64,000 bases of DNA from Escherichia phage Ecwhy_1, in sequence record MH791411.1. One strand, 5' to 3'. Positions 6,633 to 58,946 of the stretch are shown here, in pieces. The position numbers were made by a program, and so were the translations under genes. Under the pieces are notes generated by a model. It did no database searches and was not told the origin of the DNA. It saw only the letters and a program-made list of their open reading frames with translations. Every line of letters starts with the position of its first letter. The first letter of the stretch is position 1.

Positions 6633-6718
6633 TCACTTCGTTCTCTCGTAACTCAAGAAGTCACTACGTTTACTTCGTAAACTAGTTCCTTCTGAAAATG
6701 ATAATGTACTTTAAAAGC

Positions 6719-7260
6719 TTGACGGGATTTGTTGAGGACTATTTCATCCCCCCGCAGGGGAATGAAGGTAATAAAAAAGAGACAATTAAGTCTCTCTTGA
6801 CGATGATGGCATCGGATATTATCGAATTGCGAATTTCTCAAATTTTGGACGGATCTTTCCTGTACCAAAATTTAGAGAGCGAAAGCGGGTTGCTCGGTTT
6901 CTCTCTATCGCAGTCATATGCAACGGTCGCTGGTCTTTTCATCAACAGCACTCAGTACTAAACTCTATTCGATCAAAGTAGTACCTGTTCTCAAATTTTG
7001 GACGCAACTTTCTTGTAAAATCGCGTCCACAATCCTTGAACTCCCTTAGCAAATTCGTAAGGTGCGAACCTTATACATCTATCTAGGAACTCTCTGTGTG
7101 CTTATTGGAGTTCTTTATACAGCCGTGTCGCCGTGATTCGTGGTCTTATCTCGTGTTTGTTTGATTGCCAGTACTCTAACAGGTTTCTTTTGCTGTTCGC
7201 TACAACGGTAAAGCTCATCTATCCTTTACATTTTCAAGAGAAGTAGGTTCTCATTATCCA
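6719..7260 (+). ncRNA. candidate structured non-coding element, copy A (paralogous to 57533..58016)
   Basis: Largest intergenic gap; long near-identical blocks shared with copy B; GNRA-capped hairpins in plus-strand sense (GC-GAAA-GC, TAAGGT-GCGA-ACCTTA); no conserved ORF; strand assignment tentative. Confidence 0.4.
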
Positions 7261-7322
7261 TTTTTCAATGTCCGTTGTCATTTTACAATATACATTATAT
7301 CACTAGGATGTATTATGTCCCG

Positions 7323-13221: not shown

Positions 13222-15951
13222 TTAATGCCAACGTGTACCAGAGCTTGAAGGAACACCAGTACTTGCGGGGATAGCAGAACCACGCTTGGTCGTACTAGGT
13301 CTGTATGTCAAGAATCGGGTTACCTTTTCAGTATCAATTGACGTAATACTCGTACTTCCAGTAACAATATCACCAACATATACGTTTGTCAATGTCTCAT
13401 CAAGAAGAGTTGTACTGATAACGTATGCCGCTTTTCTTGTGTTACGGTTCATTTGAATGTAAAGATAAAAAGTACTGTTAGCTGGGTTAGTTTTAATAGT
13501 ACTTAATTCTATGGTTTGAATCGCCAATCTATCAAACATACCACCAAGGAATACCGGAACTTCACGGGTGAAGTACACAGTGAAACCTTCAGCAACATCT
13601 TGTGAAACTACTACGATTTTATCTTGTACAGTTCCTGAACCATCAATCAACCCATCCATCTGTGCTGATGTTGTCCCAAAGAGACTAAACACTGCTTTAG
13701 TTTGATAATCTGAATCTTGAAGATGATAGTATCCAAATCCAACACCTGGTATAACTCCGTGCTGGAATGCATTGCCATTATCTATGTAGCTGGATGACAT
13801 AAATCGGTTAGATGTAATCAAACCATTCACTGTTTTAGCAATCATCAATTTGAATTGAGCATTACCAGGTTGTGAAAACTGATGAACTGCATCAACACCA
13901 ATATAACCAAAACCAGAATACTTAGCAACAGTTAGACCAGTACAGCGTTTCATATAGGCTTCGGTTACAATACCTGTTACAGAATTAAGTGTTTCGTATC
14001 TAGAACTCACCATAGACGCAGAACTAATATTGGTTCCTGAAACCGTGACATCAACTTCAGAATATATTGCATAACCTTGGTTATTTCCTAAGTTATATGC
14101 AGAAACCACCGCAATAGATTTTGAGAAAGAACTATCTGGTACATAATATAAAGCAATTTTACCAGAAAATGCTCCTACTATTCCAATATTAGCAAGTATT
14201 TCTTGTTTTAATGTTTCCAGAACATTATCACCAATTGTATAAGAACCATCAAATTCTAAAGTATCTGGGTTAAACAAACCACCACTTGTTTTGTATACAC
14301 CTTCAATGAATGATGTCCCATAACATTTAACTGAACCGTCAGTATCAATTAGTGAAATCATACCTGTATATTTGAAATCATCACCAAGACGAGTTCGGTT
14401 AGCTTGTGGTGCAAAACCATTAAGTGTTGTATTGTTTTGTACTGAATTGAACTGGAAGGTTGGATCAGTACCAATTTCAGAAAATACTGTATTGTTATAA
14501 CCATATGACTCATCTTCATATGTTCCAGAACATGCTAACAGTACTTTACGTTTATCAATAAAACGTGTTCCTAAAAGGTTTTCACCTACTGCACTACCAT
14601 ATGTTGGGGCAACGTTTACAAATTTAGAATTGTTCGCTTTGCGAGTACTGGCAACCCAACTATCATATGGTGTTCCTGTTACGTTATAAACCTGAATACC
14701 ATAGGTTTCAGAAGAACTCCAACGAGCACGTGTGCTGAATACTAAACCGTCATAGGTTTGGCATATAGAACCAACGTTACCTAATTGTGGAACACCTAAC
14801 TGTGTACCCATGAAGTTATTCATCTCAATGGCAAATGGGTTTGTTAGTGTGAATCCATCAACATCATTATATTCCGCTGCTATTGGTGCTCTACTACTTC
14901 CATCAATTGATAATGATTTAGAGTTGATAGTATAAACAAAACTAAAACCACTAGCATAAACAGTACTAATATATAGATTTGATACTAAACGGTTAGTTGG
15001 GAATAATGTAATTCTAATCTTTGATAAATCTGGACTTACGTTTGCTTGTATATTATAATCTGTATAATCTGAATATTCAACTCGTGTAACTGGTGAAGTG
15101 CATTCAAATAATGAATCACTACTAGTTCCAACTGAATATAATCTTTCATAAATTTTCAAATTATTAGCACTTGTGTAGTTAACACTTCTTAAGGTTTGAC
15201 CAGAAAAACCAGTAACCTTAGCAAAAGTACTCATAGTACCATCTTTAATACTACTTGTATTAACAGTATATAATGTTAAAGCCAAACCATAGTTTGCTAT
15301 AGTAGTGTCTTTGCACCACACAAATACTTTATCATTAACGATATGTGCATACAATGGTTTATCTGTACCAAATGATGTAGCAGCGATAGAAGCGTGAATA
15401 TGTGCAACTTCGTTAAATGTACCATTTGTTAAAGTGAAAATATAATTACTTGCACTAGATAGGCTAACTAGTAATTCATAACCATTCGTTCCGATGAACT
15501 GTTTAACATTTTCAGTACTTGGAAGAATTCTAGGATGATATTTTGATGTAGTACTGATAACACTACTTTGTGTTAGTGCATCAATATTACGCAAATCACG
15601 AATGAATGCATAGTAATATCCTTCAGTACTACCATTTGTACCAGCACGTAATACCACACCAGTACCATCATCTTCGACTATTGTTGGTTGCATACGGTAT
15701 ACATCTGAAAGCGACGTTGCCCCTTCGTATGAACCATTAACGTTTAATGGTAGATAATCCATTTCCCCTATACGGGAGATTGGTAACATATCAAGTATTT
15801 TTTGAACTTCTGATCTTTTATAAATTGGATAGTCAACAATACCTGTATTTGCGTCTGGTGCTGTACCATTAAAAGTACGCATAGCGTACTTTCCACCAAT
15901 TGCCAAATTTCCAAGTATAGCAGCACTACCAATGATGCGTTTGGATGACAT
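13222..15951 (-). CDS. tail fibre / receptor-binding protein
   Basis: 909 aa, Ser/Thr/Gly/Asn/Tyr-rich fibre-like composition; shares N-terminal LPIS..G..YLP block and C-terminal ~130-aa block ending YRPSTTKRGSAIPASTGVPSSSGT with two adjacent genes. Confidence 0.55.
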   Translation of the reverse strand: MSSKRIIGSAAILGNLAIGGKYAMRTFNGTAPDANTGIVDYPIYKRSEVQKILDMLPISRIGEMDYLPLNVNGSYEGATSLSDVYRMQPTIVEDDGTGVVLRAGTNGSTEGYYYAFIRDLRNIDALTQSSVISTTSKYHPRILPSTENVKQFIGTNGYELLVSLSSASNYIFTLTNGTFNEVAHIHASIAATSFGTDKPLYAHIVNDKVFVWCKDTTIANYGLALTLYTVNTSSIKDGTMSTFAKVTGFSGQTLRSVNYTSANNLKIYERLYSVGTSSDSLFECTSPVTRVEYSDYTDYNIQANVSPDLSKIRITLFPTNRLVSNLYISTVYASGFSFVYTINSKSLSIDGSSRAPIAAEYNDVDGFTLTNPFAIEMNNFMGTQLGVPQLGNVGSICQTYDGLVFSTRARWSSSETYGIQVYNVTGTPYDSWVASTRKANNSKFVNVAPTYGSAVGENLLGTRFIDKRKVLLACSGTYEDESYGYNNTVFSEIGTDPTFQFNSVQNNTTLNGFAPQANRTRLGDDFKYTGMISLIDTDGSVKCYGTSFIEGVYKTSGGLFNPDTLEFDGSYTIGDNVLETLKQEILANIGIVGAFSGKIALYYVPDSSFSKSIAVVSAYNLGNNQGYAIYSEVDVTVSGTNISSASMVSSRYETLNSVTGIVTEAYMKRCTGLTVAKYSGFGYIGVDAVHQFSQPGNAQFKLMIAKTVNGLITSNRFMSSSYIDNGNAFQHGVIPGVGFGYYHLQDSDYQTKAVFSLFGTTSAQMDGLIDGSGTVQDKIVVVSQDVAEGFTVYFTREVPVFLGGMFDRLAIQTIELSTIKTNPANSTFYLYIQMNRNTRKAAYVISTTLLDETLTNVYVGDIVTGSTSITSIDTEKVTRFLTYRPSTTKRGSAIPASTGVPSSSGTRWH

Positions 15952-16567: not shown

Positions 16568-19264
16568 TTACCAATTGATTGTTCCTGTTTGTGACGGTAG
16601 ACCATAACTAACTGGGAATGAAGAACCAGCAGCTTCAAGAGACGCACCGAAAATATCCAATCTTGAACGTTTTTGTATGTTAACATTTGATATTTGTAGT
16701 GAGTTTGTTTGTATAGTACCTATCCAGAAAATATTATATGCTGTAGAACCAGTTTCTGAAATAACATCAGTTGTTATTACATATTTTGCATTACCTTGTT
16801 CCATTTTAACATATACATGAAATAATGTGTTTGCTGGATTAGCCTTAACTGTAGTTAAGTTTATACTAGTAATCGGTAATGTAAATGCTTTACCAGAAAG
16901 AATTACTGGAGTTTCTTCTGTGAAGTACACAATAAAACCTTGAGCAACGTCTTGTGAAACTACGTTAATCGGTGCACCTTGAGCAGTCCAGTTATTATAA
17001 TCAGCAATTGTAGTACCACATTTTTGGAAAGTCATTTTGTTTACATAGTCTATTGCTTGGAAATAACCAAAACCAATACCAGGTAAAGCTGCTGGTTGAA
17101 TACCTTGCTCATAACTTGCATGTGAACCACTGATAATAAAACTATCAAATTGTGCAGTTGCTTTTGTTACATATGCTCTGAATTGGTGTGTGTTTGTATT
17201 ACCAATAGTTGGGTGAGATAATGGGTCAGAACCACCTATGAAGTAGAAAGAACCACCATCATATATTGTTAAACCAACAGAAGACGAAGCAAAACTACCA
17301 TTACCATTTGGTGTAAAGTTACTTCCGTAAACGTTTTCTAGTACTAAACGCTTGAAGGTAATTGTAGTGATATTACCTGAACGTGTATTCACATTCACTT
17401 CAGCAATTCTAATATAGTTCTGATATGTATTTGTAACTGTACTTAGCATTACGAATGCAGGTATATCAGTTTGTTGTGGAACAAACAATGTCATATCTTT
17501 ATAAGCAGCGGAAGATAAGTTCCAGTCGCTTAGTACTTTGGCGTATTCAGCATTTCTGAAATTATCAAGTACAGATTGAGTAACACTAATGATACCAGTT
17601 CCGTTCATATTTTTATCATATGATAGTGATTGGGAATATCTCTGACCTACCATGAATATCCCACCATTTGTAGTAACATTATTACCACTAATGGAACTAA
17701 TAAAAACTCTGTTGTTCGTGTTATCTGTCACATTAGCACGTTCTGTTGTTGGCTCATAACCTTGTATGGTTCCACGTGATAAAGAATTAAACGTAAAGTT
17801 AGGAGTACTTTTATGAACTGCATAAGATGGACGGAATGCACCAGAACCAGTTGAACGAGAATACTGTTTAGTACTGTTCCCTGGAAGCAATTCTACGCCG
17901 TTAATAAAAGAACCAACTGCTGAACCAAATGAAGGACGAACTATGCCATTTCTGAAATCAGTTGAAATGTTCGCACGTACATTAATCATGCTATATATTG
18001 ATTGTGCAGTAAATTTAGCTTTCTGCATAAGCAATGGTTCTGCTAAGTTTGGACATGCAGTACAGAATACTTCACCTGTATTCAGATAATAATATGAACT
18101 GTAAATGTTTCTTGCACCGCTATGGTCATATAAAGGATCTTTGTTGAGAACGTTACCAGTAGCAACCAATGCCGAACCTGTGTTTGTAACAACAAATGGT
18201 GCAGCAAATGTACCAATATCGTTCCCATTATCCAAGTTACATTGTTTAGTACTCATGTTAAAATTGAAACTATAACTATGCTGTGGTCGGGTATTGTAGT
18301 TTGCCATAGTGAACCATGCGTCACCATTCATTCTGAATCGGAAGTTCTGCGTTCCTGGCTCCTGAGCAACATATAAATCGATAGATGTCATATAAATCCC
18401 CATACCAGCCAAATTTTGTGGTACATAGACATATGGCTTATCAGCAATATTAGTTGAGTTAACATGGTCAGTAATGATTATATTATTCTGAGCAGTATAT
18501 GTAGTATTGTAAAAAGTTTTTGTTGTCCATCCCGTGATTCGGGTAGCAGTATAAGTACCGTTTGCAATATTCAATACAACACGAACAACAACAATCTGTA
18601 GTTTGTTATTTTCATTAAGGACGTTGAATACATAAACTGAACCGTCTTCTGCCATCATAGCATACTCAATCCCACCTTCAGGTGAAATATCAGCTTGGTT
18701 CACAAAAAGACCACTATGTTGTGTATCATCCAATGTACCATTCGTTACTGATATAAACAACCCATTAGTATTGGTAGATGTGTCATTGTAACGACCTAAT
18801 AGTATTTTTGAATCAGTATTGTATAAACCAATAGCAACACGGTTTGCCCCAAAATAGCCAGGCTTATACTGACGGCTTGTATTAACAGTACGGCTCATAT
18901 CGGTAACGGATAATGCGTTCGCTAGGTAAGAATAAAATAAACCTTCAACACTACCGTTTGTACCACTACGTAATAGTACTAATGTGCCATCGTTTTCTAA
19001 AAGTATTTTGTTTCTACGTTGGGATTGGTTTTCTGATGCACCATTAAAATCACCAGATACCCCAGCAGGTAGATAGTTATGTGTACCATAATGCGAGATT
19101 GGAAGTAAACTAATTACATCAAGTAATTCTTCTTTGGAATATGTATCAATTTCCATATTACCATTAGCATCAAATACTTGATCATTGATGCCCTGTACTG
19201 TTCTTTTCCCTTTAACTGTCACATTATGAGTGACGTCTAAGCCACCATATATTTTCTTTGACAT
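16568..19264 (-). CDS. tail fibre / receptor-binding protein
   Basis: 898 aa; fibre-like composition; N-terminal LPISHYGTHNYLP and C-terminal VYFTEETPVILSG...SSFPVSYGLPSQTGT blocks shared with 13222..15951. Confidence 0.55.
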   Translation of the reverse strand: MSKKIYGGLDVTHNVTVKGKRTVQGINDQVFDANGNMEIDTYSKEELLDVISLLPISHYGTHNYLPAGVSGDFNGASENQSQRRNKILLENDGTLVLLRSGTNGSVEGLFYSYLANALSVTDMSRTVNTSRQYKPGYFGANRVAIGLYNTDSKILLGRYNDTSTNTNGLFISVTNGTLDDTQHSGLFVNQADISPEGGIEYAMMAEDGSVYVFNVLNENNKLQIVVVRVVLNIANGTYTATRITGWTTKTFYNTTYTAQNNIIITDHVNSTNIADKPYVYVPQNLAGMGIYMTSIDLYVAQEPGTQNFRFRMNGDAWFTMANYNTRPQHSYSFNFNMSTKQCNLDNGNDIGTFAAPFVVTNTGSALVATGNVLNKDPLYDHSGARNIYSSYYYLNTGEVFCTACPNLAEPLLMQKAKFTAQSIYSMINVRANISTDFRNGIVRPSFGSAVGSFINGVELLPGNSTKQYSRSTGSGAFRPSYAVHKSTPNFTFNSLSRGTIQGYEPTTERANVTDNTNNRVFISSISGNNVTTNGGIFMVGQRYSQSLSYDKNMNGTGIISVTQSVLDNFRNAEYAKVLSDWNLSSAAYKDMTLFVPQQTDIPAFVMLSTVTNTYQNYIRIAEVNVNTRSGNITTITFKRLVLENVYGSNFTPNGNGSFASSSVGLTIYDGGSFYFIGGSDPLSHPTIGNTNTHQFRAYVTKATAQFDSFIISGSHASYEQGIQPAALPGIGFGYFQAIDYVNKMTFQKCGTTIADYNNWTAQGAPINVVSQDVAQGFIVYFTEETPVILSGKAFTLPITSINLTTVKANPANTLFHVYVKMEQGNAKYVITTDVISETGSTAYNIFWIGTIQTNSLQISNVNIQKRSRLDIFGASLEAAGSSFPVSYGLPSQTGTINW

Positions 19265-28466: not shown

Positions 28467-28532
28467 GAGTATTTCTCCTTTGTTGTTAACAATATTATTA
28501 TATCATGTATGGGACGAATGTCCCATACATTA

Positions 28533-42615: not shown

Positions 42616-43342
42616 CTTTTTCTTTACGTAAGTATCTCATCCCACCACTTTGGGGAGTTGCAAGAGTCAAATCACCAGTTAAGAACTGACTATCAATCCA
42701 GATACGATTACCATAAATGAGTGGGTCGGATACTGCGGTATGACCACTAAAGACGCAATGGATACCATCAAGTCTAGGGACGTAATATGTGTTATTTTTC
42801 TTGCAGTAGTCGAATGTATCACGGTCCCACAAGCACTTCTCAATTATATCAGCACTAAGTGATTTTGTCCCACTAACGAAACGTTCCCATGTGGTATATT
42901 CCAAAGGAACACCAGCATGAACCAGTCCAATCTTCAATCCTCGGTGATTGATTTGGATAATCATAGGGAGATCCTTTAAGTACTGACGGAAGAACTGTAT
43001 ACCTGTCTCACCAACTTCATCAATGAACTTATCTCCACCATTTTGTACCCAACAGTGATGCCAGTCACGGTGAGTTTCAGAATCAACGCACATGATCTCG
43101 TGGTTACCAGCAATCATAAAACGGTTTTCACCGAAAAGGAATTCAAACAGTAGTTTGGAATTCTGGTCACCACGGTCAATAACATCACCTACACAAAAAA
43201 CATAGTCATTATTGGTGATACCAAATTCTTTCTTGGTAGCATCCCACAGTTTTCCATTGCCGTGTAAATCACCAACGATATATAAATCTTTATCATCCGG
43301 TACTGTAACTTCCAAAAAATGTTTCATTATTGTTCCAACCAT
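42584..43342 (-). CDS. Ser/Thr protein phosphatase (lambda-PPase-like metallophosphatase)
   Basis: GDLHGN, GDVIDRGDQN, AGNHE motifs; 252 aa. Confidence 0.8.
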   Translation of the reverse strand: MVGTIMKHFLEVTVPDDKDLYIVGDLHGNGKLWDATKKEFGITNNDYVFCVGDVIDRGDQNSKLLFEFLFGENRFMIAGNHEIMCVDSETHRDWHHCWVQNGGDKFIDEVGETGIQFFRQYLKDLPMIIQINHRGLKIGLVHAGVPLEYTTWERFVSGTKSLSADIIEKCLWDRDTFDYCKKNNTYYVPRLDGIHCVFSGHTAVSDPLIYGNRIWIDSQFLTGDLTLATPQSGGMRYLRKEKDEYSFNRFKR

Positions 43343-45034: not shown

Positions 45035-45091
45035 AACAACTACTCCATGTCAGTGTTGTAATGAAATTATATCACCGAATCAAGATATGTC

Positions 45092-45397
45092 TCATGAGAT
45101 TCGCATTTCATCCAGATATAAACTACATGCTTCGAAATTGTTGTCAGCACTTAAACCTAAATCAACCATCAGACCACAATGCGTTCCACAGAATTTCTTT
45201 ATGTATAGTTTCTTATTGTTTGTACCTAAGTCGTATACATATTCATTTTCGAAAATAGTTTTTAAATCATTACAAATACTTTTTACTATCTTCATTACAT
45301 CATTATGATACTCATATGGTATTCCATCTAGTTCATCAATGATAATAGCAAAACCATTGTCATAGTACTTTAGTTTATTGAATGTTTGTATATCCAT
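45092..45397 (-). CDS. hypothetical protein
   Basis: Track ORF, 101 aa. Confidence 0.45.
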   Translation of the reverse strand: MDIQTFNKLKYYDNGFAIIIDELDGIPYEYHNDVMKIVKSICNDLKTIFENEYVYDLGTNNKKLYIKKFCGTHCGLMVDLGLSADNNFEACSLYLDEMRIS

Positions 45398-48477: not shown

Positions 48478-49620
48478 CTAAAAATCCTTTAGTACAATTT
48501 TCATGTACTTAATAAGAGTCTCTTTGTAATCGACTTTCTTATTGTTGTACATTGCAAAGGCCAAGCCCTGACGATTCAGTTCATTAGTTAAACACTCCTG
48601 AACCTTCTTAGCGAATTCCTTTCGCTCCAAGTGCTTGTGTTCCTTGACGAAGCTTTCAACTTCATCTTGTAAAGCATTATAGCACGAAAAGACTAGTTGT
48701 TCCATTCTTAATATCTTTTGGGTAGCATATTCGTCAGTACTGAACAACTGTTTTAAATCATCACTCGAACCATTTAATACAGCTTCATATAAATGGGAAT
48801 CGAATATAATACTGTCTTTCGTTAAATGCAAAGAACAATACCAGTCGGTTTTGATTTTGCACATTGTACCATTATTTAGGATGCACACAAAACCTTCAAT
48901 GTCAAGCATTTTCTTAACTTCTTCAACACTTTCTTTGAATGTAGCACGAACAGGGAAAGTGTAATGAATATCTTTACCTGTCATGTTAGTACTGTACTGT
49001 GCAAGGCATGGAAACTTGTTACGTAATGCAGAACCACATAATAGTTCACCACTCTTGCGATGGCGAACGTTTAGTACAAATATTTGTTCAACCTGGTATG
49101 GTAATACAATACGGTACTCTGGACTTGTATACTCCAGATTAACAGTATAGCCCAAACGGTCTGCTTCGTCAATGTATTGATACAAATTTTGGTTCTCATT
49201 GAGAAGACGAGTACTGTTAATCGCATGGTCTGAATACAATGCAGTATGTGATTTACAACGAATTACACCATCATTATCACGGTAAGTACTGATTACTGAA
49301 CCATCCAACTTAGGCATCACTACTGCAATGTCATCGAATGTGGTATCAGCAGGGAACATTGTAGCAGGATTTTCGTAAGCATTGAAGAACTTTTTCATAG
49401 TACGAGCAGCACAACGAATCATATCACCGTCTTCATCAATTTCCCACATAGAACCACGGGTTTCTAATGCATTGGGTTGCATGAAATCGGTATATGATGC
49501 TAGACGATAACTGAATACACGATATGTTCCACCAGCAGGACTTTTATGATCCACATAAAAGAAAGCCTCACGAGTATTACATAAGTGCATTAAATCTTCA
49601 TATATTTGTAAAAGGGTCAT
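48478..49620 (-). CDS. rnlA: RNA ligase 1 (T4 gp63-like)
   Basis: FFYVDHKSPAGGTYRVFSYRLASYTDFMQPNALETRGSMWE parallels T4 Rnl1 [41 protein letters not shown]; motif I lysine in PKLDGSVISTY; 380 aa. Confidence 0.85.
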   Translation of the reverse strand: MTLLQIYEDLMHLCNTREAFFYVDHKSPAGGTYRVFSYRLASYTDFMQPNALETRGSMWEIDEDGDMIRCAARTMKKFFNAYENPATMFPADTTFDDIAVVMPKLDGSVISTYRDNDGVIRCKSHTALYSDHAINSTRLLNENQNLYQYIDEADRLGYTVNLEYTSPEYRIVLPYQVEQIFVLNVRHRKSGELLCGSALRNKFPCLAQYSTNMTGKDIHYTFPVRATFKESVEEVKKMLDIEGFVCILNNGTMCKIKTDWYCSLHLTKDSIIFDSHLYEAVLNGSSDDLKQLFSTDEYATQKILRMEQLVFSCYNALQDEVESFVKEHKHLERKEFAKKVQECLTNELNRQGLAFAMYNNKKVDYKETLIKYMKIVLKDF

Positions 49621-56869: not shown

Positions 56870-57415
56870 TTATAGACAGTTAAGTACTATGTCATCAAAA
56901 GTACTACTGTCAATGTTGTATTCATATAAAAATTTAAAATGTGATCCATAACGCATCATCAGATTAAACTCTTCTTCAGTATTAAATTTGTAATCATGAA
57001 GAGTTTCAAGGGTACATGTTAAACCTAAAAACTCAATAATTTCTGATGTTACATCATTTCCTGAATTGAAGTATTTAACCCAAACACATTTTCCTTGTGG
57101 GTTGAATTTTCTATATTCTCCTTCTAGTTCTCCATTGACGATATGTGCTTTCGCACTGATTAGATTATTACTATAACGCTCTTCGTAGTAGTTCCCATAA
57201 CGAGCTTTAAGAATTGTAGGCTTCTTGGTTGGGAATAACTTAATGGAAGTTAATTCAAAACCGCACTGCAACTCTTTGATGTACGAAATACATCCCTTTT
57301 CTTTAATCACAACAAAACCAGTAAAATTCTCTTGGTCTTGGTTCTGATTGTCTGAATCAACAAATTCTAGTGTTTTATAAGTGACGCTTTTAGATTTTTT
57401 AATAAATGACATCAT
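56870..57415 (-). CDS. hypothetical protein
   Basis: Track ORF, 181 aa; GELEGEYRKFNPQGKCVWVKYFNSGN is faintly MORN-repeat-like. Confidence 0.5.
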   Translation of the reverse strand: MMSFIKKSKSVTYKTLEFVDSDNQNQDQENFTGFVVIKEKGCISYIKELQCGFELTSIKLFPTKKPTILKARYGNYYEERYSNNLISAKAHIVNGELEGEYRKFNPQGKCVWVKYFNSGNDVTSEIIEFLGLTCTLETLHDYKFNTEEEFNLMMRYGSHFKFLYEYNIDSSTFDDIVLNCL

Positions 57416-57532
57416 TATTCCTATGGAAACATCAATGACTGTACATGGCGTTGACTACATCAACACCAGTCGAATTATACACGCTTCGCATGTCTAATTC
57501 GACGAAAGTACTATGATTTGTTTTAATTAATA

Positions 57533-58016
57533 TTGACGGGGTTTGCTTGAGCATATTTCATCCCCCCCGCAGGGGAAAGAACAAAAAAAGTTTGACGCTG
57601 GTGGCCTTCACATAGTTCATATCACGAATTCTCTTACGAGGCGAAAGCGGGTTGCTCTGTTTCTCTCTATCGCGGTTCTTGTAGCAACGGTCGTCGGTCT
57701 TAAACATCCCGACACATAATACAAATACCATATGACCAGTACTTGTATTTGATTTCACGAATTTTGGACGCAACTATATTGTATAAATTACGACCGCAAA
57801 TTTCTCATGAAATCTCCCTTAGATAATTGGTAAGGTGCGATCCTTATATGTCTATCGAGGAACTCTCTTTATCCTATTGGAGTTCTTTATACAGCCGCAT
57901 TGCCGTGAGTGGTTCAAACTATGCCATCATCTAACGGGTTTCATTTGCTGTTCGTACTGAAAGGACTACTCATCTACCCTCTACTTTTCGAGTGGATTAG
58001 GCTTTAATCATTTCCA
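57533..58016 (+). ncRNA. candidate structured non-coding element, copy B (paralogous to 6719..7260)
   Basis: Second-largest intergenic gap; shares the same conserved blocks as copy A; strand assignment tentative. Confidence 0.4.
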
Positions 58017-58034
58017 TATGGAACCTTTCAGGAT

Positions 58035-58067
58035 TAAAAAAAGGCGACAACATATTCTGCTGTCACC
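58035..58067 (-). terminator. putative intrinsic terminator
   Basis: On minus strand stem GGTGACA/TGTCGCC (one G-U) followed by T7; ends the upstream gene just before element copy B. Confidence 0.45.
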
Positions 58068-58097
58068 TTACATTATATCATAAACTTATGGTATGTC

Positions 58098-58946
58098 TCA
58101 GTTGTATTCTGTTTTTTCAGTGAAATTAGTTAAGATATCTGCACTTAAGCTTCTCATAACCTCAATCTTACTTGGCATGAACCTGTGCTTGTTTTTTACA
58201 TACAACTCATCATCTTCAATGAAAGATGTGAACATGAATACCATATCTTCACGTGGAATTGAGAGAATATTACAGTTTTCATTTTCAGCAACAGGGGAAT
58301 CATTGTAGTACTTAGAGAATGCAGTACTTTGACGACCGATTATGATAGAATTTCGGATTAGAAAATTACTACAGTACTGAAAATCTTTGTAGTACTTGTC
58401 AAGGATATATGGCATTATCGCTTCTTTCACTTCTTCATATCCATTGGTACTATCAATTTCAGTACAATAATCTTCTCGGTCTTTTTTCCCTCGATGATTA
58501 TCAAACTCGTACTCAAAGAATAAATTTTTATTTAATGAATCATTTGAACCAACTGATCCACTATAGTATGATTTTCTATCATTCATTCGATCATCCGGGC
58601 ATGATGCATACATAGAAATGTCATGTGTTGACGTACCGATATAAATTTTCTTAGTAATGTGATTGTACGCGATGTAATCATAATCTTGTACTCCAGTTAG
58701 CATTAACTGGAACATCAATTCATCAGGAACATCAATTAACGGGTACTCAAACTTCGAATATCTACTACGACAGAAATTCTTTTCAAATGCTCGATATGCG
58801 ATGAAATCTTTTAGGTTTGTAATAGATTCATGCTCATGTGTACTACTGGTGCGTACATTGACATTAGTAGACGAGCAATACCCTTCAGATTCTTCTGCGT
58901 AGTCATAATAACCCTTACTGTAGTCAACGATTAGATAAAGTTTCAT
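58098..58946 (-). CDS. hypothetical protein
   Basis: Track ORF, 282 aa. Confidence 0.5.
   Translation of the reverse strand: MKLYLIVDYSKGYYDYAEESEGYCSSTNVNVRTSSTHEHESITNLKDFIAYRAFEKNFCRSRYSKFEYPLIDVPDELMFQLMLTGVQDYDYIAYNHITKKIYIGTSTHDISMYASCPDDRMNDRKSYYSGSVGSNDSLNKNLFFEYEFDNHRGKKDREDYCTEIDSTNGYEEVKEAIMPYILDKYYKDFQYCSNFLIRNSIIIGRQSTAFSKYYNDSPVAENENCNILSIPREDMVFMFTSFIEDDELYVKNKHRFMPSKIEVMRSLSADILTNFTEKTEYN

Follow-up and report, generated by a model that had tools for sequence, protein, structure and literature searches.

A conserved intergenic element of Rak2-like jumbo phages as a probable gene for a large structured RNA

Introduction

The question addressed here is what is encoded by an intergenic element of Escherichia phage Ecwhy_1 (sequence record MH791411.1), located at positions 57,533 to 58,016 of the 64,000-nucleotide stretch of DNA that was analysed (the window). 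An initial annotation, made from the letters of the sequence, described it as copy B of a two-copy conserved non-coding element. Large, intricately folded RNAs are rare, and wherever a role is known, the RNA is either a ribozyme or forms the core of a major ribonucleoprotein machine. GOLLD and ROOL are large ornate non-coding RNAs often found on phages or prophages; neither a biochemical role nor a linked protein gene is known for them. Each new class of large RNA (OLE, GOLLD, ROOL and raiA) has opened structural and functional work.

Results

Location, copies and boundaries

The window was 100% identical to Escherichia phage fEgEco12, an Asteriusvirus and Rak2-like jumbo phage. Scanning the 64-kb window with the family profile (nhmmer) returned two matches only, both on the minus strand: copy B at 58038..57529 (E 5.1e-123) and copy A at 7285..6717 (E 1.4e-109). 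The third-best match had an E of ~0.1. Pairwise alignment of the copies showed 78% column identity with several indels, and copy B is indeed a second copy of the copy A element. The two-copy description is accurate for the window but not for whole genomes: Asteriusvirus genomes contain three full copies, and those of Mimasvirus and Eneladusvirus contain five. The extent of the paralog is as follows.

6717..7321, minus strand: copy A, with its body at 7285..6717

The left boundary proposed for copy B, 57533, is exactly the last conserved base, whereas the right boundary, 58016, was drawn too short: the conserved body extends ~22 nt further, to 58038, and the likely start lies at ~58065, ~50 nt past the proposed boundary. 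The flanking ORFs of copy B were present as described (upstream 58098..58946 and downstream 56870..57415, both on the minus strand, the latter starting at 57415). By blastp, the flanking ORFs of copies A and B are unrelated, in agreement with the statement that the element is not part of a duplicated gene block; the ORF upstream of copy A encodes a DUF7325 protein. The element lies outside coding sequence, between transcription units, and holds no conserved ORF. A 73-nt direct repeat with 79% identity, 3.35 kb apart at 13539..13611 and 16891..16963, was also observed in the window; it is unrelated to the element and is probably paralogous coding sequence.

Promoter and transcription unit

A promoter was identified directly upstream of the element in all 37 aligned copies, a set comprising the non-identical copies first collected from phage genomes and IMG/VR. 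It contains a TGRRAC-type box, a 14-nt spacer and TGnTATAAT. The hexamer TATAAT was present in 36 of the 37 copies, mostly as TGnTATAAT (TATACT in the remaining one, L024), and the box 14 nt upstream of the -10 element read TGAAAC, TGGAAC, TGAGAC or GGGACA. The following elements were located in the window.

58072..58100, minus strand: copy B promoter, with TGAGAC box (58100..58095), 14-nt spacer and extended -10 element TGATATAAT (58080..58072)
7321..7316 and 7302..7294, minus strand: copy A promoter, GGGACA box and -10 element TGATATAAT, respectively
58034..58069, minus strand: terminator hairpin of the upstream ORF 58098..58946, a 12-pair stem and T-run, U7 in the RNA

Conservation starts at the predicted transcription start site. 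The ends of the RNA, as well as its abundance and stability, are inferred, with predicted start sites at ~58065 for copy B and ~7287 for copy A.

The window contains five promoters of this class (TG[AG][AG]AC, 14-15 nt, TGnTATAAT), all of them on the gene strand.

58100..58072, minus strand: promoter-class site
48704..48676, minus strand: promoter-class site
45094..45066, minus strand: promoter-class site
42872..42843, minus strand: promoter-class site, within apparent coding sequence
28525..28497, minus strand: promoter-class site, preceding a gene with a good ribosome-binding site

The class corresponds to the TGAAACG/-10 promoters of phages CBB and GAP32, which are mostly located upstream of DNA-synthesis genes (PMC5259590), and is probably the middle-type promoter of Rak2-like phages.

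The upstream gene had been described as closed off by a terminator right before the element. The terminator-like hairpin with its T-run is present (58069..58041, minus strand), but it does not simply precede the element; it sits between the -10 box and the body of the RNA and consequently overlaps the RNA 5' end, covering the first ~30 nt. A start at ~58065, as predicted from the promoter, would truncate the 5' arm of this hairpin and give a weaker one. Orthologous copy-B-type genes contain other hairpin sequences at the same place between the -10 element and the body, and in genes of this type a terminator so close behind the start site could lower expression driven by the promoter. Additionally, the TGA stop codon of the upstream ORF (58098..58100) is embedded in the -35-like box (58095..58100), and the arrangement of a stop within the box and a terminator downstream looks like an insulation device.

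Strand assignment

The plus strand had been taken implicitly as the sense of the element; the functional strand is instead the minus strand. Helices predicted identically on both strands contained, in the plus sense, 67 A-C against 23 G-T combinations. An A-C combination in the plus sense is a G-U pair in the minus sense, so the count of wobble pairs points to the minus sense. Alternation of G-U with G-C or A-U was likewise seen at many pairs when read in the minus sense, and not in the plus sense, and the folding z-score of copy B against shuffled sequences was -1.76 in the minus sense and -0.05 in the plus sense. A plus-strand RNA was ruled out by the wobble-pair asymmetry, the promoter and the folding z-scores. 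In G17 and CBB, the copies adjoining endonuclease VII are antisense to both neighbours and have kept the promoter, which indicates an independent gene and not merely a leader.

Secondary structure of the core

A curated model was built on the 37-sequence alignment and contains 14 helices and 77 pairs, including two pseudoknots; hairpin P2 and a small helix before R1 were aligned too inconsistently for pair counts. Overall, the fold has at least 14 helices, of which two are pseudoknots, and contains loops whose sequence is invariant. The positions in copy B are given below.

57583..58038, minus strand: folded RNA core, from covariation in the 37-sequence alignment
58031-58024/57964-57957, minus strand: P1
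57951-47/57895-91, minus strand: P3
57937-34/57906-03, minus strand: P4
57885-80/57865-60, minus strand: P5
57846-43/57834-31, minus strand: P6
57814-11/57754-51, minus strand: P7
57749-38/57729-18, minus strand: P8
57714-11/57695-92, minus strand: P9
57674-70/57627-23, minus strand: P10
57667-63/57647-43, minus strand: P11
57640-38/57633-31, minus strand: P12
57616..57736, minus strand: pseudoknot PK1, the P8 loop (57736..57730) pairing with 57622..57616 just 3' of P10
57651..57688, minus strand: pseudoknot PK2, GUUGC (57688..57684) of the invariant CGACCGUUGC pairing with GCAAC (57655..57651)

Standard pairs were formed in 97.4% of cells with the model, compared to 36-43% when the 3' partner was slid by 1-3 columns. 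Compensatory double changes were observed at 53 of the 77 pairs (14-22 when slid), and the covariation score was 0.516 (0.06-0.10 when slid). None of 500 shuffles reached any of the observed pairing or covariation values. All seven pairs of PK1 covary (e.g. AU18/UA14/GC3 and CG21/UA16), and PK2, whose GCAAC partner lies within the 15-nt loop of P11, likewise shows covariation (GC32/AU4/GU1 and CG23/UA12/AU1/GC1). Divergent members found later, namely those of RaK2 and Muenster and a fifth paralog type, keep the pairings, including the pseudoknots, through other sequences. This strong compensatory covariation, together with the lack of a conserved ORF, upheld the description of the element as conserved, structured and non-coding, and it refuted the alternative that both copies are inert remnants with no structure conservation.

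Differences between copies A and B were concentrated in loops, as first annotated, and the loop difference quoted at that time lies in hairpin P5 (57885..57860 in copy B, 7113..7087 in copy A). Optional hairpin modules inserted at fixed points account for the indels between the two copies. A recurring hairpin module, ending in CGUCCAAAAUU, was present once in copy B (57771..57760) and twice in copy A (7005..6994 and 6852..6841), where the second is inserted in the P12 loop; within the family it behaves like a portable structural module.

The 3' module and its coupled repeats

The core is followed, in order, by a repeat R1, a U-run or intrinsic terminator, a G+C-rich hairpin (P13), a second repeat R2 and AT-rich DNA.

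57592..57602, minus strand: R1 core M1 of copy B, ACCAGCGUCAA, then U7 at 57589..57583
57557..57581, minus strand: P13 of copy B, UUCUUUCCCC-UGC-GGGGGGGAUGAA, 10 bp
57533..57542, minus strand: R2 core M2 of copy B, ACCCCGUCAA, the last conserved bases of the element
57416..57532, minus strand: trailer from the element to the next gene (start 57415), with small hairpins and a TGTATAAT box
6807..6797, minus strand: M1 of copy A
6795..6773, minus strand: terminator-like AGAGAC-UUAAUU-GUCUCU and U6 of copy A
6766..6743, minus strand: P13 of copy A
6728..6719, minus strand: M2 of copy A

The consensus is A[U/C]CA[U/G/A]CGUCA[G/A] for M1 and A[U/C]CNCGUCA[G/A] for M2. P13 shows G-U/G-C alternation in the minus sense only (UG21/CG16 and others). 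No strong hairpin precedes the U7 that follows R1 in copy B, and in the fifth (E-type) paralog M1 is the 5' arm of a clear terminator, GUCAGA-UAUUAU-UCUGAC followed by U8. Conservation ends exactly at R2, and the next 30 nt contain 13-27% G+C. The trailer probably serves the next gene as its promoter or leader. Small hairpins with ACG[AT]AGUGA (CAC-GNA-GUG) loops were observed in the trailers of most family members (e.g. L006, L012 and L051), also behind a copy that has no co-oriented downstream gene. On the gene strand of the window this motif was found behind copy A only (6633..6669, minus strand). The hairpins could be operator sites or an RNA 3' trailer.

R1 and R2 are direct repeats of ~25 nt that co-vary within each copy, as determined from 82 distinct members. 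The types AUC/AUC, ACC/ACC and ACG/ACG always match between R1 and R2, with no genuine exception among the 82, and the G/A position matches in ~94% of them. CGUCA is changed to CUUCA in both repeats of the RaK2 clade, and to UGUCA in both repeats of one member. The likeness also spans the hypervariable 5' part (e.g. GAAAUGU, AUAAAC and AAUUGCC). Mean alignment scores were 5.7 for the two repeats of one member, 2.7 for repeats taken from different members and -4.3 for shuffled repeats. Different repeat types coexist within one genome, and a lineage-specific protein therefore fails to explain the coupling.

The RNA and its flanks were searched for a complement of the repeat cores (9 or more of 10 pairs, counting G-U) and of the variable 5' part, and none was found at a conserved place. 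An alternative helix between the Px 5' arm and R2 is feasible in some short types but fails in the Asteriusvirus copies. The 200-nt trailers contained no conserved plus-strand promoter, 28 of 99 having a sigma-70-like match at scattered positions, and an antisense RNA reading both repeats was ruled out on this basis. The only route by which direct repeats can read each other is through complementary DNA strands. The coupling could reflect a shifted-register RNA-DNA hybrid, slipped DNA or recombination; passive sequence conversion between the repeats is an alternative.

Coding potential and comparison with known RNA families

An open frame across the most conserved 210 nt, in any frame, was found in only 3 of 82 members, and indels of 1-2 nt were frequent. 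Protein-coding small genes were ruled out, as no frame is conserved across homologs. Many GenBank records annotate 3-5 short "hypothetical protein" CDS over the RNA genes (e.g. 7t3, WPEC3, WPEC5, JP4 and the SD-* Salmonella phages); given that no frame is conserved, these are very probably false gene calls.

Searching the whole window against Rfam 15 at gathering scores returned 0 matches, and permissive searches with both copies (E<=10) and with nine diverse members (E<=1) returned chance hits outside the element or at less than one third of the gathering score. GOLLD (RF01998), ROOL, OLE, HEARO, raiA, RNase P, tmRNA, 6S and self-cleaving ribozymes were accordingly set aside, none having an Rfam 15 match. 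ARAGORN detected no tRNA or tmRNA in the window. No transposase, homing endonuclease or intron signature was found at the element. A group I/II intron or homing-endonuclease remnant was rejected because the element lies between genes, is preceded by a promoter of its own at constant spacing, matches no intron model, has no conserved ORF and is flanked by complete, unrelated ORFs.

The element is not mentioned in the fEgEco12 genome paper, the CBB paper (PMC5259590) or a 2026 jumbo-phage review, nor does it appear under the terms jumbo, GAP32 and 121Q in the main text of a 2023 catalogue of viral structured-RNA candidates. A literature search covering these phages and the non-coding RNAs of jumbo phages turned up no account of it, nor a transcriptome of any Rak2-like phage. 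With no Rfam 15 match and no account in the literature searched, the element was filed as a new RNA class.

Distribution and genome spacing

The element, used as a BLAST query, matched 61 phage records at 4-5 places each; the count of three copies in Asteriusvirus refers to full copies and leaves out the fourth BLAST place in those genomes. The pattern GACCGTTG, 14-26 nt, GAAACNGNNNAACCCGC was found in 53 IMG/VR stretches, all in ~350-kb Rak2-like contigs or their fragments, and a looser scan for the 3' hairpin gave mostly chance matches in unrelated contigs. A metagenome scan contributed 65 further loci confirmed by the profile, 51 of them full-length. Full-length homologs were identified in RaK2, K64-1 and Muenster (E ~1e-39), with two copies located in RaK2-like phages.

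Scanning bacterial genomes yielded three true copies, on contigs resembling phage DNA. All three are full-length, in Silvania hatchlandensis H19S6 NODE_11 (185 kb), Enterobacteriaceae bacterium RIT714 contig 4 (299 kb) and a 2.8-kb contig binned as Clostridium sp. UBA10317. The most likely source of these copies is DNA of Rak2-like jumbo phages, present as a carrier state or as contamination, or else mis-binning of the contigs. The range of the family is limited to ~350-kb Rak2-like jumbo phages (Asteriusvirus, Mimasvirus, Eneladusvirus and Alcyoneusvirus). The paralogs cluster by type across genera, which makes the duplications old.

Read in the RNA sense, the three full Asteriusvirus copies follow each other as B, A 51 kb on and C 84 kb on, with ~215 kb thereafter. 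Five genes were located in both GAP32 and CBB, on one strand and with gaps of 52-84 kb.

GAP32, all plus strand: RNA genes at 35.2, 98.8, 177.5, 261.5 and 340.7 kb
CBB, all plus strand: RNA genes at 32.4, 94.3, 174.4, 258.1 and 336.3 kb

A fifth copy had been predicted near 100 kb and was located afterwards. For five random points on a circle, the chance of all gaps being this large is ~0.005, a statistic computed post hoc on genomes that share gene order and hence are not independent. An extra Asteriusvirus copy, predicted ~84 kb past copy C, was absent from 72-112 kb of G17, and the even spacing thus stops short of Asteriusvirus. No GC-skew inflection was found at copies A and B. Two ORF-free gaps of ~400 bp were observed in G17, at 78.2-78.6 kb (in a tRNA cluster; L269:6199-6604) and 99.2-99.6 kb (L269:27239-27640); they are unrelated to this RNA family and could hold other non-coding RNAs.

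Discussion

The element is almost certainly a gene for a large structured RNA. The features of a stand-alone large non-coding RNA gene that can be read from sequence were found, namely its own promoter, the absence of an ORF, compensatory structure and an orientation independent of the neighbouring genes. Our preferred reading, held with about even confidence, is that it represents a new class of large structured RNA in which the folded core is itself the product, either a stable RNA serving as a scaffold or a catalytic or self-assembling one. On this reading copy B is a minus-strand gene for a structured non-coding RNA of ~450-510 nt that belongs to an undescribed family, and the RNA would be made in mid-infection. 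The core would be released at the U-run or terminator after R1 and would remain as a stable folded RNA, functioning either as a scaffold for proteins or, in the manner proposed for GOLLD, ROOL and OLE, as a catalyst or self-assembling RNA. Setting or processing of the RNA 3' end would fall to the 3' module (R1, terminator, G+C hairpin and R2), which may also tie the transcript to the DNA locus it came from. The main argument for preferring a stable RNA is the complexity of the fold together with its invariant loops. A purely trans-acting RNA does not explain the co-variation of R1 and R2 without a complementary RNA partner, nor the single strand and near-even spacing of the five GAP32 and CBB genes. 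It is doubtful, yet conceivable, that the RNAs act at their own loci, being tethered or priming replication through a shifted-register hybrid of R1 with the R2 template, in which case the three to five co-oriented genes, evenly spaced in some genomes, would be replication origins defined by RNA or RNA anchors organising a 350-kb phage chromosome.

The main rival explanation, though somewhat unlikely, is that the transcript is a pre-primer like ColE1 RNA II or the RNA of an R-loop origin, the dispersed copies being replication origins of the phage. R1 RNA would hybridise out of register with the DNA template of R2, a repeat almost identical to R1, and the persistent RNA-DNA hybrid, trimmed at ...CGUCAR, would prime the leading strand into AT-rich DNA. 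The direct repeat does supply an upstream stretch of RNA that can pair with template DNA close to the RNA 3' end. In line with such pairing, R1 and R2 co-vary in each copy, the hypervariable 5' part included, there is no complementary RNA partner, and repeat types coexist in one genome. Conservation ends sharply at R2 with AT-rich DNA beyond it, the promoter class is that found upstream of DNA-synthesis genes, and the RNA is similar in size to ColE1 RNA II. The GAP32 genes are co-oriented with gaps of 53-84 kb (chance ~0.005), although this spacing statistic is post hoc and the genomes, with their common gene order, are non-independent. However, it is not obvious why a primer RNA would require 14 conserved helices, two pseudoknots and invariant loops, and a terminator between R1 and R2 would free most transcripts before R2. 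The three full Asteriusvirus copies, with gaps of 51, 84 and ~215 kb and none in G17 72-112 kb, the two copies located in RaK2-like phages and the absence of a GC-skew inflection at either copy in the window also argue against origins, as does the lack of a conserved plus-strand promoter for a cis-encoded, RNA I-like antisense regulator.

Two further explanations concern the downstream genes and the nature of the element itself. That it is a cis-acting giant 5' leader, such as an attenuator sensing a signal or an RNA for processive antitermination, controlling downstream read-through with the terminator and R1/R2 as expression platform, is improbable. The next genes are co-oriented in most copies, no strong terminator follows R2, and a U-run or intrinsic terminator, very clear in the E-type paralog, lies inside the element after R1, all of which such a leader would account for. 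Yet no co-oriented gene follows the copies adjoining endonuclease VII, the genes downstream of the various copies are unrelated to one another, and no alternative pairing partner was found for the repeats. Moreover, R2 is transcribed after the terminator and so cannot affect the termination decision, and a sensing domain of ~450 nt would be far above any known riboswitch or leader. It is very improbable that the element is not an RNA at all, and functions as a single-stranded DNA structure (a priming or nicking signal) or is a decaying mobile element, an intron or a set of small genes. This would fit the 3-5 small "hypothetical proteins" annotated over the element in several GenBank records, and because G-T wobble is tolerated in folded single-stranded DNA too, the strand bias alone is no proof of RNA. 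The -10 element and upstream box are nevertheless correctly placed in every copy, conservation starts at the predicted start site, and 14 helices and two pseudoknots are held by compensatory change across genera, while there is no conserved frame and no transposase, homing endonuclease, intron signature or group I/II match.

In kind, the structured RNA comes closest to the large ornate non-coding RNAs; its mechanism may be most like that of ColE1 RNA II or of the R-loop origins of T4. GOLLD and ROOL, and the cellular analogues OLE and raiA, resemble the family in size (~500-800 nt), covarying helices and pseudoknots, but the family shows no similarity to their Rfam models. GOLLD and ROOL belong to Lactobacillales or rumen phages, whereas the present family belongs to enterobacterial Rak2-like jumbo phages. 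Unlike them, it has 3-5 dispersed paralogs, each with a conserved promoter and not beside tRNA genes, and it ends in a 3' module whose two direct repeats change together in every copy. ColE1 RNA II, the pre-primer RNA of a plasmid, is ~550 nt long, and its upstream G-run pairs with a downstream C-run of the DNA. Its likeness to the family is that of a promoter-driven structured RNA with an upstream segment matching a downstream one, which in ColE1 lets the RNA pair with template DNA and start a persistent hybrid at the origin; the family is a phage RNA with a much more elaborate fold and no conserved RNA I-like promoter. The T4 origins oriF(uvsY) and oriG(34) are R-loop origins with middle promoters. 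They share with the family several dispersed sites, a T4-like replisome and a middle-type promoter, and the transcript would likewise act at its own locus, but they share no homologous structured RNA, and the family transcripts are 10 times longer and conserved across genera. The phi29 pRNA (174 nt, single-copy) is part of the packaging motor and resembles the family as a phage-encoded structured RNA with covarying loop-to-strand pairings. PK1 could be intra- or intermolecular, as in the phi29 comparison, although the family shows no sign of a packaging role. In PA5oct, a jumbo phage of the same broad clade as the phages carrying the family, RNA-seq defined four ORF-less regions of 236-619 nt (ncRNA001-004) with unknown function, two of them highly expressed (PMC7318152). 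No homology to these four loci was detected (nhmmer --max, E<=10), and the signature motifs were absent from them.

A practical gain from these results is the recognition of spurious "hypothetical proteins" over RNA loci in dozens of GenBank phage records. The family occurs in cultured, genetically tractable E. coli phages (fEgEco12, 121Q, PBECO4 and G17) and is therefore directly testable. To our knowledge, almost nothing is known about the replication and organisation of very large phage genomes, and we know of no structured-RNA origin or anchor system described for any phage. Two features set the family apart from other large RNAs, namely direct repeats that co-vary within each copy and genes that lie on one strand and, in some genomes, are evenly spaced. 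Together, these features hint that a folded RNA may be tied to the way in which a very large phage genome is replicated or organised.
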